This document shows, one piece after another, positions 1 to 48,601 of a stretch of 48,601 bases of DNA (position 1 is the stretch's first letter; the number at the start of each line of letters is the position of its first letter). The notes beneath the pieces are model-generated. The model searched no databases. It saw only the letters and a list, made by a program, of their open reading frames with translations, and was not told the origin of the DNA. The stretch comes from a virus. The stretch is taken from positions 1-48,601 of IMG/VR virus record IMGVR_UViG_3300037511_000156; one strand, written 5' to 3'. Position numbers and translations under genes: made by a program.

Positions 1-127
1 TGATTGGCCATGTACTCTTCGTCGTTCGCCAGGGTTGGGTTATCCATGATTGTAGCCGGCAGATAGAACCACCGGGCCGGTAGCGTGCCCTTTGACCACG
101 GATCGTAAACGCGTTTCTTCGGCCACA
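1..127. repeat. Terminal direct repeat, copy 1 (identical to 48475..48601); most likely the assembly overlap of a circular contig
   Basis: Bases 1-127 (tgattggccatgtactc...cttcggccaca) recur exactly at 48475-48601. A single reading frame runs through the junction. Confidence 0.95.
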
Positions 128-686
128 ACAGAGTAGGGTTTACGTTGGCCATGATGATCGGCTTCGGCATCGGGTTGATGCCCTGCGCTTCCTGTTCAGG
201 TGTGGGCTCGATCTTCCAGCGGCCAGCGCGTGTAAAGCATACATCAAGCAAACCTTCCTGCAGCTCTTCAATCTGCTCGAGCAAGAAACCGTTTACCTCC
301 AACCCTTTAAACCGGTCAAAGTTCTTGTCTTGGTTGTAGTTCTCGGCCATGAATATGATCCGGGAGCCGTTCGTAAACTCGGCAATGTGGTCCTGCTGGT
401 TGAAATTGGCCAGGAAGTTAGTAGGCACGATCCGTTTGAAAGTCTCGAGTGTAGTGCTTTTTAAAGTCGGGATAGAATCTCGGATGATCACCCATTTCGA
501 CCCGGGGTAGAACTTACAGAGCATGATAGCCGCCGCAATGCAGACGTATGACTTTCCGCCGCCCATCGCCCCGCCGTAACAAAGAAAGGTGTATTTGCCC
601 GAAAAGACCGCCTCTATAAACTCTTGTTGCTTCGGGTAAGCGCTAAATAGGACTTTCGTCTTAGAACTTGAGCTCTTGTCCGCCAA
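1..686 (-). CDS. terL: Terminase large subunit, N-terminal part (continues from 47799..48601 across the circular junction)
   Basis: The minus-strand frame is open from the window edge up to a TTG at 686, with an in-frame TAG just upstream at about 720-722. It encodes ...SGKYTFLCYGGAMGGGKSYVC (Walker A) ...NVNPTLLWPKKRVYDPWSKGTLPARWFYLPATIMDNPTLAN. That sequence is contiguous with the 47799..48521 ORF. Joined length is about 454 aa. Confidence 0.85.
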   Translation of the reverse strand, partial: MADKSSSSKTKVLFSAYPKQQEFIEAVFSGKYTFLCYGGAMGGGKSYVCIAAAIMLCKFYPGSKWVIIRDSIPTLKSTTLETFKRIVPTNFLANFNQQDHIAEFTNGSRIIFMAENYNQDKNFDRFKGLEVNGFLLEQIEELQEGLLDVCFTRAGRWKIEPTPEQEAQGINPMPKPIIMANVNPTLLWPKKRVYDPWSKGTLPARWFYLPATIMDNPTLANDEEYMAN

Positions 687-1134
687 TGTTGAATGATTGC
701 GGGTCGGGTATGGTATGCGCTATCTCTTGTTTATCCTTCCAGCGCTTCGGATCGCGGTTCTTGAGGAAGAATATAGCAGCGGCAGTATTTGGGGCTTCTT
801 CTTTGAAAGCTGTTTTTACACGGGTCTTTGGCTCATAATGCCATGTTCCGTCGCCGTGGTCTATGCGCTCTTCAATGTCTTCGTATACAACTTCTTTTGT
901 GACCAGGCCGTTAGCGCGTTTGTAAAGGCTATGAGCCACATTTGCATCCGCAATCTGCTTACCTTCGGTTAGGGACTCCGAAAATACCGGATGGTCTTTT
1001 TTCCATTCGTTGAGTGTAGACTCCGCTATGTCGAGAGCTAGACTGATTTCGGTATCGGTTAAGCCTAGTAAAGCGAGTTTAAACGCCATTTGAGGGTGAT
1101 AATCCTCTTTGAACTTGCTGGGCCGTCCTGCCAT
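661..1134 (-). CDS. terS: Terminase small subunit (HTH DNA-binding)
   Basis: 157 aa. The N-terminus MAGRPSKFKEDYHPQMAFKLALLGLTDTEISLALDIAESTLNEW is typical of a phage small-terminase HTH. The gene overlaps the terL start and sits directly upstream of it. Confidence 0.75.
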   Translation of the reverse strand: MAGRPSKFKEDYHPQMAFKLALLGLTDTEISLALDIAESTLNEWKKDHPVFSESLTEGKQIADANVAHSLYKRANGLVTKEVVYEDIEERIDHGDGTWHYEPKTRVKTAFKEEAPNTAAAIFFLKNRDPKRWKDKQEIAHTIPDPQSFNIGGQELKF

Positions 1135-2853: not shown

Positions 2854-3156
2854 CTATTCCCAGCCTTCGGCTATAGCCAGGGCTTTAGCAATTTCATCGT
2901 CTGATAGGAGCTTACATTTTTGTAGTACCTGTATTGTCAAAAAGCGTTCTTCATCATCGATATCGGAACTGGCTGTGTTGTTCAGAGCATCATCGAGGCA
3001 GCTGTCAACAAGATCTAAATTCCAGTCATCAAAAACCACGTGCGCGTAACCAAACGCGGGATTAATTTCACGTAATCCATTTATCATTTCCGATACTTCG
3101 GTGATGACTGTCGTAACAGGGACATCATTATAATCTGCTCTACAATTTTGACACAT
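2854..3156 (-). CDS. Hypothetical acidic protein
   Basis: 100-aa ORF. It overlaps the upstream HNH ORF end by 17 nt. Confidence 0.55.
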   Translation of the reverse strand: MCQNCRADYNDVPVTTVITEVSEMINGLREINPAFGYAHVVFDDWNLDLVDSCLDDALNNTASSDIDDEERFLTIQVLQKCKLLSDDEIAKALAIAEGWE

Positions 3157-3454
3157 GGCCTAGTTTTTTATTATGAATATCCTGTAAAAACTCCCTTTTG
3201 TCGGCTATATCGCCGTATTCGATGTGGTGCTCCCGGCACAAGGCCATCAAATTCTCGATCACGTCCTTACCCTGTATTCCGCCCATCTTCCTACTGTGTA
3301 TGTGGTGTATGTCCACCGCTCGCGCGCCGCAGATCTCGCAGGGGATGAAATCGGATACGTCATATCCGAAATGCTGCATGTAAATGCGTGTGTGTGCTTT
3401 CAAGAGGTCCGTTTGGGGCTCGAACCCAAATACAGCCGCTGACGCAGCTTGCAT
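3140..3454 (-). CDS. HNH endonuclease (true start probably Met26 at 3379)
   Basis: CEICGARAVDIHHIHSRKMGG...ENLMALCREHH is an HNH motif. The first 25 codons of the listed ORF overlap a tRNA-like structure, so the 3379 start (MQHFGYDV...) is preferred. Confidence 0.8.
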   Translation of the reverse strand: MQAASAAVFGFEPQTDLLKAHTRIYMQHFGYDVSDFIPCEICGARAVDIHHIHSRKMGGIQGKDVIENLMALCREHHIEYGDIADKREFLQDIHNKKLGHVSKL

Positions 3455-3474
3455 GCCACTCTGCCACCGGACCT
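3405..3474 (-). ncRNA. Deviant tRNA-like element A (canonical acceptor, D and T arms; abnormal anticodon arm)
   Basis: Minus strand: AGGTCCG/CGGACCT is a 7-bp acceptor. It is followed by a 3-bp D stem, GCA-GAGTGGCA-TGC, whose loop contains GG. The T arm is TTGGG-TTCGAGC-CCCAA. The anticodon position holds AGCTGC-GTCA-GCGGCT (6 bp plus a tetraloop) instead of 5 bp plus 7 nt. Confidence 0.55.
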
Positions 3475-3523
3475 ACCAATCAATCCAAACTAAATAAGCA
3501 AACTCCCGAAACGTATTATTTAA

Positions 3524-3573
3524 ACGACAGCCGGCAGGTCCAAAACTGTTTTAATCGTTTAACCGGCTGCCGT
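3524..3573 (-). terminator. 11-bp stem, long-loop hairpin after the secreted-protein gene
   Basis: Minus strand ACGGCAGCCGG (3573-3563) pairs with CCGGCTGTCGT (3534-3524). The one G.U pair would be a C.A mismatch on the plus strand. An A/T-rich tract, TTAAATAAT, follows. Confidence 0.45.
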
Positions 3574-3581
3574 TATGACTT

Positions 3582-3932
3582 TTATTCCAAAAATACTTTT
3601 ATGACTCTGCCGTTTATATAGAAAGGCCCTCCGTCTGGCTGCGTTCCGAGGCCGCAAACCTGGTATTGGTCAAGGCATATGTTATCACCGCAGAAATAAC
3701 TACTTCGAGTAGCCCAATCGCTACAGCCCTGAACAAGCATAGGCGAAACTTCAGTGCCATTTTTAAGATCGATGTATTCCGGAGAAAATTCCCGGCCGGC
3801 ATGTTCGTATCTGGCTATTGCCTTTTGTAACCCTGACTCACTTAGTGTCTGCGAGCCTTCGGAAGAACTTTGCGCCTGCGCGCCTACCACAACAAACAAC
3901 CCCACAACGAGAGTTAAAATTAACGTTTTCAC
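3582..3932 (-). CDS. Secreted small protein (signal peptide, 4 Cys)
   Basis: GTG start. The N-terminus is MKTLILTLVVGLFVVVGAQA followed by polar residues. The mature part contains four cysteines. Confidence 0.65.
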   Translation of the reverse strand: MKTLILTLVVGLFVVVGAQAQSSSEGSQTLSESGLQKAIARYEHAGREFSPEYIDLKNGTEVSPMLVQGCSDWATRSSYFCGDNICLDQYQVCGLGTQPDGGPFYINGRVIKVFLE

Positions 3933-3981
3933 GATATTTCAGGCTACTTGTATTCCGCTGCCCGGCGGGTTATGGTTTAAA

Positions 3982-4128
3982 GATGCGAGGCAGGATTCAA
4001 TACCTGCACGCCGTCTATAGTTGGAAAAGGCTTTGATATTGGAGTTCCACATCTCCTGGGGCGGCGTCACTCTGCGGCTAGGCCTGTCTTACTTCTCCAA
4101 CTTTGCGTCTTATTCCGCCACTCGCATC
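3982..4128 (-). ncRNA. tRNA-like module E1 (147 nt)
   Basis: Minus strand, in order:
- 8-bp acceptor GATGCGAG/CTCGCATC, followed by U;
- D arm GCG-GAATAAGA-CGC, resembling a class II tRNA D arm;
- 9-bp helix TTGGAGAAG/CTTTTCCAA with one G.U, capping a 62-nt insert;
- T-like hairpin GCAGG-TATTGAAT-CCTGC. Confidence 0.65.
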
Positions 4129-4140
4129 TTATATCTTAAA

Positions 4141-4293
4141 GGCGCACGGCAGGATTCGATACCTGCATTATTTTTTCAGGTTTTAAGGCCTGGGGTAAAT
4201 AGAACCTTGCCTATTTATTGCTCTATACCACCCCCGGTACCTCTCCGGGTATTTTCGAAAACGGTGGTTGCCTCCTAATCGGCCACGTGCGCC
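4141..4293 (-). ncRNA. tRNA-like module E2 (153 nt), paralog of E1
   Basis: Minus strand, in order:
- 8-bp acceptor GGCGCACG/CGTGCGCC, followed by U;
- D arm GCC-GATTAGGA-GGC;
- helix ACCACC/GGTGGT;
- hairpins CCCGG-AGAGGTA-CCGGG and TAAATAG-GCAAGGTT-CTATTTA;
- T-like hairpin GCAGG-TATCGAAT-CCTGC.
Four acceptor pairs and one D-stem pair covary with E1. Confidence 0.65.
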
Positions 4294-4872
4294 ATTAATT
4301 TCAAATAAAAGGGCGCCTAACGTGTGGCCCATGCGGCATATCCAGGCATTCTAAGCGCTATTTCGGTACCTGTATTTGCTATCCCCGTAGTGCTTTTAGT
4401 TTCAAATTAACCCCCTGACAATCGCCAGGGGGTAAGCTTTCTTGTAAAGCGGACATCAGGTTCTTCGTATAGCCCCTGCAACACTTCCCGATCTCTTATG
4501 AGGTCCACCGGGTAGACCTCGCCGCTGCTTAGTATAGAGTGAACGCGCCCTCACTCACCCTTGCGCTCTGTAAATTGCCTTCGGTATCCAAGGGTATAGA
4601 GTTAAACCTGCCGGCATTCAGAAACCCGTCTTTCCGGTTGTCAACTACAGCCAATCTGTAGCACCTTCGCCTAACTTTATTTACCGGTAGCGCCACTCGG
4701 TATGCACTTAGTTACGTCACAAATGCACGAAATACGCCCTACGCTAACCCGGCAGGTATGGGGATGTTTCACATCTTTGCCATCTCTAACGCTCAGGCCG
4801 CGTTTCTCTGTCTTTCCAGAGTGTCGGCCTATCGGACTTAACGCGTACACGTTTAACCGTCTGGCATGGTCG
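4294..4872 (-). ncRNA. Central ORF-poor, hairpin-dense domain of the structured-RNA locus
   Basis: Many stems are perfect or contain G.U only on the minus strand. Examples:
- AGGCCG..CTCTG-GAAAGA-CAGAG..CGGCCT (about 4793-4830)
- GATGT-GAA-ACATC
- CTACAG-ATTGG-CTGTAG
- GAGTGA-GGGCGCGT-TCACTC (4537-4556)
- GAGGTC-TACCCGGTG-GACCTC (4500-4520)
- CCCCCTG-GCGATTGT-CAGGGGG (4411-4432)
There is also long-range AGGGCGC (4545-4551) / GCGCCCT (4310-4316) complementarity. Confidence 0.45.
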
Positions 4873-4949
4873 TGGAGATCCAGGGAATTGAACCCCGGCG
4901 GGAATTCGCTTTGCGGATTGCGAGGCAAAAACCTTTAACCTTAATCCCC
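4873..4949 (-). ncRNA. tRNA-like module D (77 nt) with a G3.U70 acceptor stem
   Basis: Minus strand, in order:
- acceptor GGGGATT/GATCTCC with G3.U70 and discriminator A;
- no D stem (AAGGTTAAAGGTT is unpaired);
- TTTGC-CTCGCAATCC-GCAAA (10-nt loop);
- GCG-AATTCC-CGC;
- T arm CGGGG-TTCAATT-CCCTG.
The sequence CGACCA follows the discriminator. Confidence 0.6.
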
Positions 4950-4953
4950 ATGT

Positions 4954-4980
4954 GCCCCGGCTATGTTCAGTAACCGGGGC
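4954..4980 (-). ncRNA. 7-bp GC hairpin immediately 5' of module D (part of the structured locus)
   Basis: GCCCCGG (4954-4960) pairs with CCGGGGC (4974-4980), with a 13-nt loop. Further stems with 15-16 nt loops lie at 5002-5028 (AAGCTA/TAGCTT) and 5033-5060 (CCGGAG/CTCCGG). A stem with a 6-nt loop lies at 5101-5116 (GGCCG/CGGCC). Confidence 0.45.
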
Positions 4981-5128
4981 GAACCTTTACATACTACAAG
5001 AAAGCTAGAACCGCCTGTCCTTTAGCTTAGCGCCGGAGAAGACCCTACATCAAACTCCGGCTGTAGCCGTTTATCGATGGCAAAACGCCGCATGCTTAAT
5101 GGCCGCGCGGACGGCCGGAACCCTACTA

Positions 5129-5275
5129 CTAAGATTCTATAAACTTTACGCCGTCTATTTCGACAGCGCTCAGTTTGCCTTCACGGATGAGTTTATAAAC
5201 CCACTCGCGACTCTTCTTTATCTTGTAACTGTAATTCGCAACAGTTAGCAAATTCTTTGTTTCTACCCTTGCCAT
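5129..5275 (-). CDS. Small HTH DNA-binding protein (excisionase/AlpA/MerR-like), 48 aa; below the ORF-track cutoff
   Basis: Manual translation: MARVETKNLLTVANYSYKIKKSREWVYKLIREGKLSAVEIDGVKFIES*. The pattern is typical of Xis-type winged HTH proteins. It is the first gene of the leftward unit. Confidence 0.55.
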   Translation of the reverse strand: MARVETKNLLTVANYSYKIKKSREWVYKLIREGKLSAVEIDGVKFIES

Positions 5276-5455
5276 TTACATGTGCTTTGCGTTTTTTGTT
5301 TCGCGTTAAAGTGATACAAACATAGTCCACAGATTCACACTATGCAAGTGATTCCCAAAAAATATTTTTTAGAATTTATTTTTCAAATATTTTTCAGTCA
5401 GGTATTGACAAGTTCACAGTTATGTATTTACTTTGTTTCATCAACAAAACGAAAT
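5276..5455. promoter_or_regulatory. Divergent AT-rich control region between the leftward and rightward units
   Basis: 180 nt without a credible ORF. TTGACA lies at 5405-5410, followed by TATTTACTTTG at 5425-5435, about 20 nt before the ATG at 5456. T/A runs lie at 5355-5400. Confidence 0.35.
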
Positions 5456-5677
5456 ATGAAAAGAATCAGCACACCTTCGCAAATGAAACCAAAATCAGAA
5501 GGCGAAATTTCACAATTCAAAAAAGTATCACCAGAAGGCAAGATTAGCCAGTACAGTGTGTACCTGCTGGACGGCCAATTCCATTTAGTTCACGGTTTGA
5601 TTTTTCATGTTCGGCAGAACCACACAGTAGCAAAGTCTAATAAAAGTTTCGCGGCAATAGCAAAGGCAATAATCTAA
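5456..5677 (+). CDS. Hypothetical early protein (internal start of the listed 5342..5677 ORF)
   Basis: Met39 starts MKRISTPSQMKPK... The upstream 38 codons are F/I-rich translated promoter-like AT sequence. Confidence 0.55.
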   Translation: MKRISTPSQMKPKSEGEISQFKKVSPEGKISQYSVYLLDGQFHLVHGLIFHVRQNHTVAKSNKSFAAIAKAII

Positions 5678-5682
5678 AAAAC

Positions 5683-5958
5683 ATGAAAACAACATTTGAA
5701 ACAGCACACGGCACGCGCGGGACACAAGCGAAAGAGTTCATGACCTTCTTTGATGACCGCGAGCAGGAGTGTATCGCCATAGTAACATGGGAATATGTGA
5801 CCGGCGCCGAAACCATCGTTACCTCGATAAAAATCAACCCGATCTGCTGGTATCGCATGCTGGAAGCCTCTTTAATAGAGGATGCTTACAACTTCATACG
5901 CGGTCAGTACACACGCGTTTCTTTCGAGACTAAAGGCCAAGTAACCGTAACCAAATAA
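5683..5958 (+). CDS. Hypothetical protein
   Basis: 91-aa ORF, 5 nt after the preceding stop. Confidence 0.6.
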   Translation: MKTTFETAHGTRGTQAKEFMTFFDDREQECIAIVTWEYVTGAETIVTSIKINPICWYRMLEASLIEDAYNFIRGQYTRVSFETKGQVTVTK

Positions 5959-6228: not shown

Positions 6229-6528
6229 ATGACTCAAATAGATTACGATGCAATGGCCGAAATACTGTCTGAGAACGGTATTACGGCTACAGATGAGAAA
6301 ATCAAAGACATTACTGACCAGTTTATTAACCATAGGCAGTGTTTGTCTGATATGGAATCCGAGCAATTCCGTGGTTCTTTTTCTGAATGTGAATCTTGCA
6401 AAAACTTGAAAGAGCAGATAAAGGATTTACAACATGATCATGATATATACAAGCAATTTGCTAGTAAGAAAGCTGGCGACAGGCCCGTTTTCATACGGGA
6501 TGGTGAGATAATGTTTATCAAGCGATAG
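6229..6528 (+). CDS. Hypothetical protein
   Basis: 99-aa acidic ORF. Confidence 0.6.
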   Translation: MTQIDYDAMAEILSENGITATDEKIKDITDQFINHRQCLSDMESEQFRGSFSECESCKNLKEQIKDLQHDHDIYKQFASKKAGDRPVFIRDGEIMFIKR

Positions 6529-6548
6529 AACAAACTGACGAGGCTTAA
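6528..6548 (+). repeat. Intergenic repeat, copy 2: GAACAAACTGACGAGGCTTAA
   Basis: Same placement as copy 1: it starts in the TAG stop and ends 5 nt before the ATG at 6554. Confidence 0.7.
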
Positions 6549-6553
6549 ATAGC

Positions 6554-6886
6554 ATGAATACACCAAAACCCGACTACATAACGCCAGGCGCTAAGGTAGT
6601 CATGGCGATAGGCGCCAGCAATCGCATATCTGATGCGGGCAAACTTAAAGCCTTGGATGCCATCACAGATATGGTTAAAACCGACTGCATCGACAATAAC
6701 TTTCACGTTAAGGAGGCGGGAACATATAATGGCCTGGAGGTATACGACCAATCTATGCCAGCAGGCTATATATTAGTCGGCATGTTCTGGTTTGATGAGT
6801 CGGAGCTTGGTAAACACTTTTGGTGGCGAATTTACGATTACTTAACTAAAGACTATCAATTTAACAGTAACCCTCACGCTGGATGA
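6554..6886 (+). CDS. Hypothetical protein
   Basis: 110-aa ORF. Confidence 0.6.
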   Translation: MNTPKPDYITPGAKVVMAIGASNRISDAGKLKALDAITDMVKTDCIDNNFHVKEAGTYNGLEVYDQSMPAGYILVGMFWFDESELGKHFWWRIYDYLTKDYQFNSNPHAG

Positions 6887-47409: not shown

Positions 47410-47798
47410 ATCGATATTGATAATTTAGCGTCCGGCATTTCTACACACTTGGCGTGGAGTTCTTCAAGCCAAGGTAGAAATTGTTCGTATGTTCCCCAGC
47501 CGTTTTGTGAGTCGTATTTCTTATATTCATATGGGTTAGCCTTCATCGACCTTATTGCCTCAACTAAAGGCTCAATAAGATCTGCAGCTCTTCGGCCGGA
47601 GACTTCCATCCATTTAAGCGACCACAGCATACCTACGCCAGCGGCGTTAGCCATGTTATGAAGGTTATGGGTAATATTAGCCTCAAAACCCTCGTCTATA
47701 GCATCCAATTCAGTTTTGCAGTGCGGGCAAACTGACTTTTTGGTTAGCGTTATATCTAAACTCATACCCAAACATACACAATTTATACACATCTGCAA
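47406..47798 (-). CDS. Hypothetical protein directly downstream of terL
   Basis: 130-aa ORF. Its start abuts the terL stop. Contains a CPHC pair. Confidence 0.55.
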   Translation of the reverse strand: MQMCINCVCLGMSLDITLTKKSVCPHCKTELDAIDEGFEANITHNLHNMANAAGVGMLWSLKWMEVSGRRAADLIEPLVEAIRSMKANPYEYKKYDSQNGWGTYEQFLPWLEELHAKCVEMPDAKLSISI

Positions 47799-48601
47799 CT
47801 ATTGCCGCGCGTACTTTTTCGGATTGGTGATGAATTCTTCGTAGAAAGTGCCTAAAAGGTACCGGAATGTATCGCCGTGGTGCTGGCCTTTGTCTTTGGT
47901 CTTGATAAGGTCTCCAAATTCATCTACCTGCGCGCTGACGATATCCGCAATGGTTTTCTCGCAGTTCTCGGTGATCGTAAATTCAGCGTGTTGCAACACA
48001 GAGTTGCACAATACCCGGGAATCTGTGATATGTAGATTTTGCTTTCTGACCAGTATCGCCCGATCGTGAAGCCGTAGCTTTTCCTGAATAACTCGATAAT
48101 GATTCAAATTGCCGCGTGTAAGGGCATTTCGGTTTCGACCCGTGGCATCGCCGGTTATCTGAATATTACCGGTCCAACGCGGATATTTCGCTGCCACAAC
48201 CTCGCAGACTTCCTCAGAAGATCCGTTATTGATTTCGATCTCGTCGAACGCTGCAGCGCGCCATAAATCCAACTGCTGCCCGATCAGAGCGGTCATAGGC
48301 TCTTTATTAAAGTCGAAAGAGACGGTAATCGGCAGGTGAGGATTCGGCACATAGCTATCCTTCGGACGGACGTGTTTGGCATATCCGAATGAGTAGAAGA
48401 ACGGATTTTCAACCGCAAACGCCGTCCAGTCGCCCAGGATGTTGCGCTTGTACGTTAGTTCCTCGAGCATGGATTGATTGGCCATGTACTCTTCGTCGTT
48501 CGCCAGGGTTGGGTTATCCATGATTGTAGCCGGCAGATAGAACCACCGGGCCGGTAGCGTGCCCTTTGACCACGGATCGTAAACGCGTTTCTTCGGCCAC
48601 A
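47799..48601 (-). CDS. terL: Terminase large subunit, C-terminal (nuclease) part; continues from 128..686 across the junction
   Basis: The frame is open to the window end. ...WPKKRVYDPWSKGTLPARWFYLPATIMDNPTLANDEEY... is contiguous with the N-terminal fragment. The Met at 48521 listed in the ORF track is internal. Confidence 0.85.
   Translation of the reverse strand, partial: WPKKRVYDPWSKGTLPARWFYLPATIMDNPTLANDEEYMANQSMLEELTYKRNILGDWTAFAVENPFFYSFGYAKHVRPKDSYVPNPHLPITVSFDFNKEPMTALIGQQLDLWRAAAFDEIEINNGSSEEVCEVVAAKYPRWTGNIQITGDATGRNRNALTRGNLNHYRVIQEKLRLHDRAILVRKQNLHITDSRVLCNSVLQHAEFTITENCEKTIADIVSAQVDEFGDLIKTKDKGQHHGDTFRYLLGTFYEEFITNPKKYARQ
48475..48601. repeat. Terminal direct repeat, copy 2 (identical to 1..127)
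   Basis: Exact 127-nt identity with the window start. Confidence 0.95.

Follow-up and report, generated by a model that had tools for sequence, protein, structure and literature searches.

We analysed positions 4294-4872 of a 48.6-kb phage-like genome (IMG/VR record IMGVR_UViG_3300037511_000156, 48,601 nucleotides (nt), corresponding to JGI 3300037473 contig Ga0400235_0000028 and called the window when meant as a whole), a segment that lies in the middle of a gene-free stretch at 5128-3933. With somewhat better than even confidence, we propose that this segment serves a phage RNA island as its variable cargo slot, holding two units that are each led by a copy of the same hairpin motif and ending in a terminator-like hairpin. 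What is directly seen is that the segment is mosaic and non-coding, that the leader motif is conserved and covaries, and that the closing hairpin is invariant. Unless stated otherwise, all features lie on the minus strand. A preliminary description had presented the 579 nt as one domain closed by a long-range helix or pseudoknot. The sequences it quoted are all present where it placed them, on the minus strand; the single domain did not survive, as the region consists of at least five segments of different histories.

Relatives of the island were sought by exact-pattern scans of IMG/VR, metagenome and genome collections and by searches with neighbouring proteins. Three exact 18-21-mers of unit 2 and a 21-mer of the closing hairpin (both described below) were scanned against IMG/VR, with one further exact-pattern scan each of a metagenome and a genome collection. 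The only true match was the IMG/VR contig L001; five others were chance matches within coding regions (e.g. a DTEGNLQ peptide and uvrA). Neighbouring-gene searches, in each of which only two to three related proteins came up, yielded the 50-kb Logan contig L118 and the 2.2-kb JGI contig L127, so that three independent island relatives are at hand. Two other hits of these searches were rejected, coding genes standing in place of the island, and the search with a 157-amino-acid (aa) protein was uninformative. No GenBank phage matched window positions 3900-5300, and no further homolog of unit 1, unit 2 or the spacer 4399-4299 emerged when all segments were run through nhmmer and blastn against about 1.2 Mb of fetched loci.

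The order of elements in these islands is a first small gene, module A, a minihelix resembling transfer RNA (tRNA), the variable slot, the hairpin block, a second variable stretch, two manA-like modules, a conserved element and an open reading frame (ORF) of 116 aa; the L127 contig begins within the tRNA-like part, the small gene and module A being outside its view. Slot content amounts to about 440 nt in the window, about 48 nt plus a shared block in L001, about 150 nt of unrelated sequence in L118 and about 50 nt in L127. From the whole region, L001 shares only 4400-4643, at 96.7% identity (L001 7016-7258), and the hairpin 4398-4433 is all that L118 and L127 have in common with it. Between the window and L001 no DNA is better conserved than the block 4400-4643; identity elsewhere is 72-91%, and the RecT region stands at 91% although the protein is 99% identical. 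Because the slot differs by lineage and 4400-4643 is shared with L001 alone, the 579 nt are not one evolutionary or structural unit. Homology between the window and L001 starts at TGACAACC, i.e. at the second copy of the leader hairpin, and the breakpoints fall exactly at this motif (4643-4645) and just past the closing hairpin (4400). Beyond the hairpin, about 240 nt of other sequence and an 89-aa ORF (6507-6776, minus) follow in L001, a BubE-family gene in L127 and a possible 27-aa ORF in L118. Since small protein genes sit between the RNA modules in L001 and L127 (the latter with the BubE-family gene and an 85-aa gene, 168-458 and 895-1152), the island accepts coding cargo besides RNA cargo. 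Conservation in relatives, which the preliminary description had named as a check of its domain, is thus found for 4400-4643 in L001 and for the closing hairpin in four lineages; the rest is unshared, and no long-range helix is kept.

Read in the minus direction, the region starts with a spacer past the tRNA-like minihelix (4829-4872), which contains a small hairpin, AACGUGUACGCGUU, and has no homolog in any relative. The proposed unit 1 (4828-4646) occurs in this phage only and comprises leader hairpin copy 1 (4803-4828) and a body (4646-4802) with hairpins at 4804-4788, 4775-4763 and 4661-4645; homologs of the body were found neither in L001, L118 and L127 nor in about 120 other loci. The proposed unit 2 (4645-4434), shared with one relative, is made up of copy 2 (4622-4645), at the 5' edge of the L001-shared block, and a body that forms the conserved core of this block (4434-4621) and is absent from L118 and L127. 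Then come the closing hairpin (4398-4433) and a lineage-specific spacer (4299-4397) between it and the first manA-like module, likewise lacking a homolog in the relatives. Paralogy between units (e.g. unit 2 and an L001-specific module) was rejected, the similarity not being above that of shuffles.

A 20-mer from the hairpin 4821-4806 at the head of unit 1 matches six unrelated IMG/VR contigs, with identity extending to 22-23 nt. An alignment of 22 sequences, the relaxed instances gathered from all loci in hand, shows an unvarying GAAAGA loop with a G-C closing pair, a conserved 5' flank UGRCA and a covarying 5-bp stem (variants CUCUG/CAGAG, CAGAG/CUCUG, GCCGG/CCGGC and GCUUG/CGAGC). In this alignment 99.1% of the cells are paired, the three inner pairs being demanded by the search pattern, and compensatory changes occur in four of the five pairs. 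The covariation score of 0.649, compared with 0.161 in shuffles, was reached by none of 500 shuffles, and slid registers collapse. Copy 1 in the window, CGACAC-UCUG-GAAAGA-CAGA-GAA, is nested in a GGCCG/CGGCC stem and has every feature of the motif except for a C in place of U in the UGRCA flank. Copy 2, UUGACAA-CCG-GAAAGA-CGG-GUUUC, is degenerate; flank and loop are present, and by our own estimate the chance of this pattern on the strand of the island is about 5e-5. The motif belongs to no Rfam family, and its sequence was not found in the literature searched.

Where tRNAs are close by, the motif always has their orientation and a fixed distance of 4-8 nt to their 5' ends. Four tRNAs follow it after 5-8 nt, namely tRNA-Arg(TCT) in two contigs and tRNA-Glu(TTC) and tRNA-Leu(TAA) in a third, and manA-like tRNA-like elements follow it after 4 nt in two loci (L034, L099). 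Of the 20 instances that lie in neither the window nor L001, six have a tRNA or tRNA-like element beginning 4-8 nt downstream. Tandem arrays with a spacing of 114-305 nt occur in three contigs (L130, L131 and the crAss-like phage cr272_1, L135). For example, cr272_1 (NC_055903.1) has four copies 114-124 nt apart at 1179-1635, within an unannotated stretch of 1.5 kb, and the first of them lies about 10 nt after a RAGATH-1 hammerhead ribozyme (RF03152, 73.2 bits). In the crAss-like phage cr273_1 (L136), two copies with the same arrangement are found in an unannotated stretch of 2 kb.

The hairpin that closes the slot, which together with its tail reads ACCCCCUGGCGAUUGUCAGGGGGUUAAUUUGAAAC, recurs in all four lineages, as no other part of the region does. 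Across these, the block reads CCCCCUGGCGAUUGUCAGGGG(G/U)UUAAUUUGAAA, with identities of 36/36 in L118, 33/33 in L127 and 35/36 in L001, and it is unchanged in L127 despite the neighbouring 116-aa protein being only 51% identical. Its core (4433-4410) has ten pairs and a folding energy of -19.5 kcal/mol (z = -4.85). The suggestion that CCCCCUG...CAGGGGG is a terminator-type element has therefore gained from the comparison: it appears to be a conserved, terminator-like punctuation element, the sole part kept in four lineages.

Unit 2 holds the hairpin GAGUGA-GGGCGCGU-UCACUC, both copies of the repeated box ACUCUAUAC, the hairpin GAGGUCUAC-CCG-GUGGACCUC and a helix GAAGUG/CGCUUU. The shared block differs from L001 at eight positions. 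Two of the differences form a compensatory pair in the GAGGUCUAC-CCG-GUGGACCUC hairpin (G4518:C4502 to U:A in L001). In the helix GAAGUG/CGCUUU, U4483.G4450 becomes U-A in L001, and the same change breaks a competing small hairpin (4450-4436). One difference lies at the base of the closing hairpin and the remaining ones in predicted linkers. The RNA strand would be the minus strand, because the G.U pairs of the unit 2 helices would be A.C mismatches on the plus strand. This substitution pattern points to a structured RNA, the evidence being thin with two sequences.

The hairpin density of the region is unusual for this genome. Counting perfect, non-overlapping hairpins with stems of at least five Watson-Crick pairs and loops of 3-10 nt, we found eight in the 579 nt, in line with the at least eight clean stem-loops claimed before; dinucleotide shuffles have 3.16±1.50, and none of 300 reached eight. 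With stems of at least six pairs, four hairpins stand against 0.81 in shuffles (four reached by 1/300). Windows of 579 nt across the genome contain 3.7±1.8 hairpins on average, and only 4 of 249 attain eight; the island is the only stretch of the genome in which the density stays elevated through six consecutive windows. For the folding energy of all 579 nt, z is -1.83 with the minus strand and -1.19 with the plus strand, and by segment z is -1.67 (4867-4644), -1.83 (4643-4400) and +1.23 (4399-4299). Of the control with shuffled sequences, the stem counts thus exceed expectation; the folding energy is only modestly below it. The region remains non-coding and hairpin-rich, as described, given the hairpin excess over shuffles and ORFs without family hits.

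Taken together, these features allow a scheme of how the island might work. It would be transcribed on the minus strand, probably from an early promoter at about 5324 and within an early leftward operon. Upstream of the first gene, which encodes a 48-aa helix-turn-helix protein (5275-5129), lies a TAnnTTTG element, TATGTTTG (5317-5324), the sole consensus promoter element of its type on the island's minus strand in the window. TAnnTTTGTAT, which we take to be the housekeeping promoter type of Bacteroidota, stands at the equivalent place in three genomes (window, L001 and L118), and the host is probably a member of the Bacteroidota because this promoter type precedes the first gene. There is one TAnnTTTG per island on this strand, except for an extra copy inside module m1 of L118, and the element scan found none in the slot that could serve units 1 and 2 as internal promoter. 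The leader hairpin may be read by a conserved factor and set, stabilise or protect the 5' end of the RNA that follows, as it might for tRNAs elsewhere, and the closing hairpin may stop or attenuate transcription and protect the 3' end. Units 1 and 2 would then accumulate as stable small RNAs, and we guess that they could act in trans on a host component; antisense targets elsewhere in the phage were limited to chance-level 10-12-mers. Finally, the short invariant hairpins may serve, together with the phage RecT, as micro-homologies for the swapping of cassettes between phages, and exchange via such invariant sequences would explain the breakpoints. That the leader hairpin is an undescribed, widespread punctuation signal, and unit 2 a new functional small RNA of phages carried as an exchangeable cassette, is a more tentative proposal, which we consider possible but would not expect.

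Several points weigh against the cargo-slot interpretation. Transcription, processing, termination and a function in trans are all deduced from sequence. In the motif alignment only the two outer pairs count as free evidence (40 of their 41 cells are paired, and several types of pair occur), and copy 2 has only three pairs next to the loop. Neither unit of the window is tRNA-like, unlike the sequence that follows the motif in the six identifiable instances. The folding z-scores of both units are modest. A single compensatory pair is thin evidence (p about 0.01 by a rough estimate of our own), unit 2 is available from two genomes only, and recent transfer, instead of selection, could be behind its high identity. 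At the other end of the slot, a scan for consensus terminators made no minus-strand call, the weak U-tract UUAAUUUG failing the rule of five U in eight, and a hairpin whose loop is as invariant as its stem would be explained better by sequence-specific recognition, or by recent spread, than by plain termination.

One alternative is a decaying remnant, i.e. leftovers of tRNA genes or of acquired DNA whose hairpins serve no function at present. At the position of the minihelix, L001 carries real genes for tRNA-Val and tRNA-Met, with unit 2 starting about 48 nt past tRNA-Met, and the window has none here; the modest z-scores of units 1 and 2, the lack of any folding signal in the spacer 4399-4299 and the failure to find a homolog of unit 1 or of this spacer anywhere searched agree with decay as well. 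Decay sits badly with the fact that the block 4400-4643 is the best-conserved DNA in the comparison (96.7% versus 72-91% elsewhere), with substitutions in unit 2 that fit an RNA structure and with a significant hairpin excess, and no similarity to tRNA is detectable in the slot. We regard a remnant as rather unlikely.

The breakpoints are also what would be expected if the units were cassettes at the DNA level, with the hairpins being recombination sites in single-stranded DNA (attC-like or IS200-like) or micro-homologies used by RecT, and the passenger DNA having no function as RNA. Homology breaks off exactly at the leader motif and just after the closing hairpin, the phage encodes RecT, and a covarying stem with a fixed loop is expected of a folded DNA site too. 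Moreover, Logan assemblies of the window's own phage (SRR12692973, SRR12692950) break at 4404 and 4963, which are module edges, and these breaks suggest co-existing phage variants that differ between the two positions. What argues for a role in RNA or transcription is the co-orientation of the motif with tRNAs and its fixed distance of 4-8 nt from their 5' ends; in addition, the compensatory change in unit 2 affects a helix unrelated to the boundaries, and no integrase or transposase is found among the scanned ORFs. The chance that passenger DNA of this kind accounts for the slot is, in our judgement, small. Both the remnant and the DNA-cassette explanation are possible for unit 1 and the spacers and fit unit 2 less well. 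An attP or other integration site was considered separately and rejected, there being no integrase among the scanned ORFs and both halves of the tRNA-like elements being present.

A further alternative, which we hold to be quite improbable, takes the 579 nt as the central domain or variable linker of a single giant, ornate RNA similar to GOLLD and ROOL, about 1.2 kb in length (5128-3975). The island occupies the position of tRNAs in relatives and is hairpin-rich throughout, its 1.2 kb as a whole fold with z = -3.2, and module A, a tRNA-like element, the hairpin and the manA-like modules m1 and m2 keep the same order among relatives; a variable part and tRNAs in a linker have a precedent in GOLLD (PMC12286853). 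Against one continuous RNA speak the protein genes within the islands of relatives (the BubE-family gene in L127 and the 89-aa ORF in L001), a terminator-like hairpin in mid-island, and the absence of any GOLLD (RF01998) or ROOL (RF03087) match, be it at gathering score in the window or at an expectation value (E) of up to 10 in 3500-5700.

It also speaks against such an RNA that no conserved long-range helix was found when the window was compared with its relatives. The preliminary description had let the loop of the GAGUGA hairpin pair with a distant strand (GGGCGC/GCGCCC) and both ACUCUAUAC boxes with GGUAUAGAG inside its module E2. L001 keeps the GAGUGA-GGGCGCGU-UCACUC hairpin and both boxes unchanged. 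Yet GUAUAGAG, the partner of the boxes, is absent from all 20.9 kb of L001, and GCGCCCU, which in the window sits in the unstructured lineage-specific spacer 4399-4299, does not occur within 12 kb of the L001 island, its sole L001 copy being 12 kb away. Both pairings are at chance level: an exact direct repeat of at least 9 nt arises in 39% of shuffles, and a hairpin loop with a perfect 7-nt complement elsewhere in 4.7%, shuffles that have about five times fewer hairpins, so that the expectation corrected for hairpin number is about 0.25. Another candidate, a perfect 12-bp helix between module A (5006-4995) and 4446-4435 in the window, was rejected as well. It is not kept in L001 or L118, and its cross-genome energies are no worse than the same-genome ones.

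If the slot acted in cis, unit 2 might be a riboswitch-like sensor or attenuator gating termination before m1, m2 and the downstream genes. Unit 2 runs directly into the closing hairpin, CAGGGG at 4478-4473 repeats the 3' strand of this hairpin and could sequester its 5' strand CCCCUG, and the conserved promoter element places the region, which lies downstream of it, near the start of the operon. However, the identical hairpin is found in L118 and L127, where the sequence ahead of it is unrelated or very short, and the hairpin is therefore independent of unit 2. Riboswitch families gave no match, folding of the nascent transcript yielded generic GC-rich pairing only, and we consider a sensor very unlikely. 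Unrecognised coding genes, for small proteins or in an alternative genetic code, have next to no probability: ORFs of 55 and 83 aa (minus) and of 40 and 78 aa (plus) exist, but ORFs of the region gave no Pfam or PHROG hit, the JGI and Logan gene callers call nothing here, all window/L001 differences in the two longest small ORFs of the shared block (33 and 32 aa) are nonsynonymous, ORF starts lie outside the conserved block, and late genes of the window read normally in table 11.

The failure to recognise motifs of known RNAs, noted in the preliminary description, was borne out by Rfam, which gave no meaningful match in the region. No family reached its gathering score in the whole window, and at E up to 10 in 3500-5700 only weak matches to manA and to transfer-messenger RNA (tmRNA) appeared, both outside 4294-4872. 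Models of riboswitches and cis-regulatory aptamers and of self-cleaving ribozymes had no match in the window. There is no tRNA inside 3933-5128 (ARAGORN, RF00005), and ARAGORN reported no tmRNA.

Both weak matches concern the modules that flank the slot. On its upstream side, the tRNA-like minihelix (4870-4949) has a 7-bp acceptor stem that includes G3:U70, a canonical T arm and loop, and A73, and is devoid of normal D or anticodon arms. The G3:U70 pair is the identity pair of alanine. The tmRNA model (RF00023) scores 21.1 bits here, compared with a gathering score of 47, and matches the tRNA-like ends only, with about 42 nt taking the place of about 328 nt. The positional counterpart in L118 (4798-4722) keeps G3:U70; L127 has a different tRNA-like element at this position (4-80). 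A full one-piece tmRNA gene, with the tag GTQINVDFAAGRKLAA, was seen on another phage contig with a related RecT (L014, 2159-2565), where it lies upstream of RecT on the opposite strand, at a position comparable to that of the island.

Downstream of the slot, two tandem manA-like, tRNA-like modules occupy 3975-4298, namely m1 (4298-4136, the E2 mentioned above) and m2 (4140-3975). The manA model (RF01745) gives 25.9 bits at 3980-4140 and 24.2 for the second match, both far short of the gathering threshold (55.2). Between m1 and m2 there is covariation in the closing helix; this helix, the GUGGCGGAAUAA junction and the 3' hairpin are where the modules match manA. Exact copies of their 3' hairpin, GCAGGUAU(N1-2)GAAUCCUGCC, are present in 86 stretches of IMG/VR contigs (loci L030-L114). 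The manA-like elements are 68-400 nt long, and a perfect, fully covarying 7-bp acceptor-like helix closes 61 of 73 distinct ones; after the 5' strand of this helix comes UGGCGGAAG(A)UAGACGC, a segment similar to the D arm of class II tRNAs. Many lie within tRNA arrays, and neither ARAGORN nor Rfam calls them as tRNA. All this gives the impression of a large family of tRNA-like elements that may include manA as one branch. A long local hairpin, GGCCACACGUUAGGCGCC...GGCGCACGUGGCC (4330-4280), takes the 5' strand of the m1 closing helix and would, because of this, be predicted to compete with m1 folding; its 5' half is absent in L001, L118 and L127.

As to the wider setting, scans for ORF families identified RecT, a DnaB-like helicase, a DNA methylase and an amidase in this genome, besides a long block of large ORFs without family hits that are probably structural genes. 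On the minus strand, the helix-turn-helix gene is followed by about 1.2 kb without a credible gene (5128-3933), then by the 116-aa ORF and a gene for an HNH endonuclease (3140-3454). ARAGORN placed a tRNA of undetermined type with a 2-base anticodon at 3404-3473 (minus), overlapping the start of the HNH gene; this tRNA call is probably false. The element AACCCGCCGGGCAGCGGAAUACAAGUAGCCUGAAA (3972-3937, minus), directly ahead of the 116-aa ORF, is 95-100% identical in all relatives, including L118, L127 and L128, even with the ORF diverged to 51%. The two ends of the window (1-735 and 47760-48599) align to overlapping L001 coordinates (1974-2708 and 1259-2098). The overlap suggests that about 125 nt are repeated at the termini, as happens with circular or circularly permuted genomes.

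Enigmatic RNAs, among them GOLLD, ROOL and the stable RNAs of phage T4, are a known feature of tRNA islands in phages. The locus described here presents such an island as modular, with leader and closing hairpins as fixed punctuation and a swappable cargo between them. The former 579-nt domain with its long-range contacts is to be downgraded; the motif and the modular island stand out instead. Should the leader hairpin be a signal for processing, start or stability that tRNAs and non-tRNA cargo of unrelated phages share, it would explain how such RNAs are made, and it would offer a practical handle for new phage RNAs, by searching behind the motif. The modular layout with a fixed closing hairpin and a leader motif common to tRNAs, tRNA-like elements and orphan cargo of unrelated phages both appear to be new.

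Among known elements, the 5-bp stem and purine-rich GAAAGA loop of the leader motif are reminiscent of the boxB hairpin of the lambda nut sites, which has a 5-bp stem and a purine-rich GAAAA or GAAGA loop. Unlike nut sites, the motif comes in tandem arrays and at a fixed distance from tRNA 5' ends, and no N-like protein was identified. The array next to a hammerhead in cr272_1 recalls the ribozyme-rich non-coding regions of phages (RAGATH-1, RF03152), whereas the window has no match to a ribozyme family and the motif is too small for a known self-cleaving class. The closing hairpin (4433-4410) followed by UUAAUUUG has the form of an intrinsic terminator in an early operon; it differs in a U-tract too weak for the consensus scan and in its invariant loop. 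With manA, m1 and m2 share the parts listed above, but the scores lie far below gathering, the family seen here is tRNA-like (acceptor-like helix, class II D-arm-like segment), and 4294-4872 itself has no match.

The stable RNAs of phage T4, species 1 and 2 (RNA C and D), are encoded in its tRNA cluster and have no assigned function; they are small, structured and probably matured from a common precursor. The likeness to the units described here is one of kind and context, small structured RNAs co-located with phage tRNA genes; a relation in sequence would not be expected, and the host belongs to another phylum. GOLLD and ROOL are large phage RNAs near tRNA islands, their function being not known (PMC12286853; PMC5737381), and GOLLD combines a conserved 3' region with a variable 5' region and a linker that sometimes contains tRNAs, often beside tRNA islands (PMC12286853). 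The region shares with them that it is phage-encoded, non-coding, hairpin-rich and placed among or beside tRNA genes; the context of GOLLD recurs in the L001 island with its tRNA-Val and tRNA-Met, a context that is not specific to GOLLD. It differs from both in consisting of exchangeable pieces rather than one conserved fold, and in that protein genes interrupt the islands of its relatives. In kind, the region resembles the orphan structured RNAs of phage tRNA islands.

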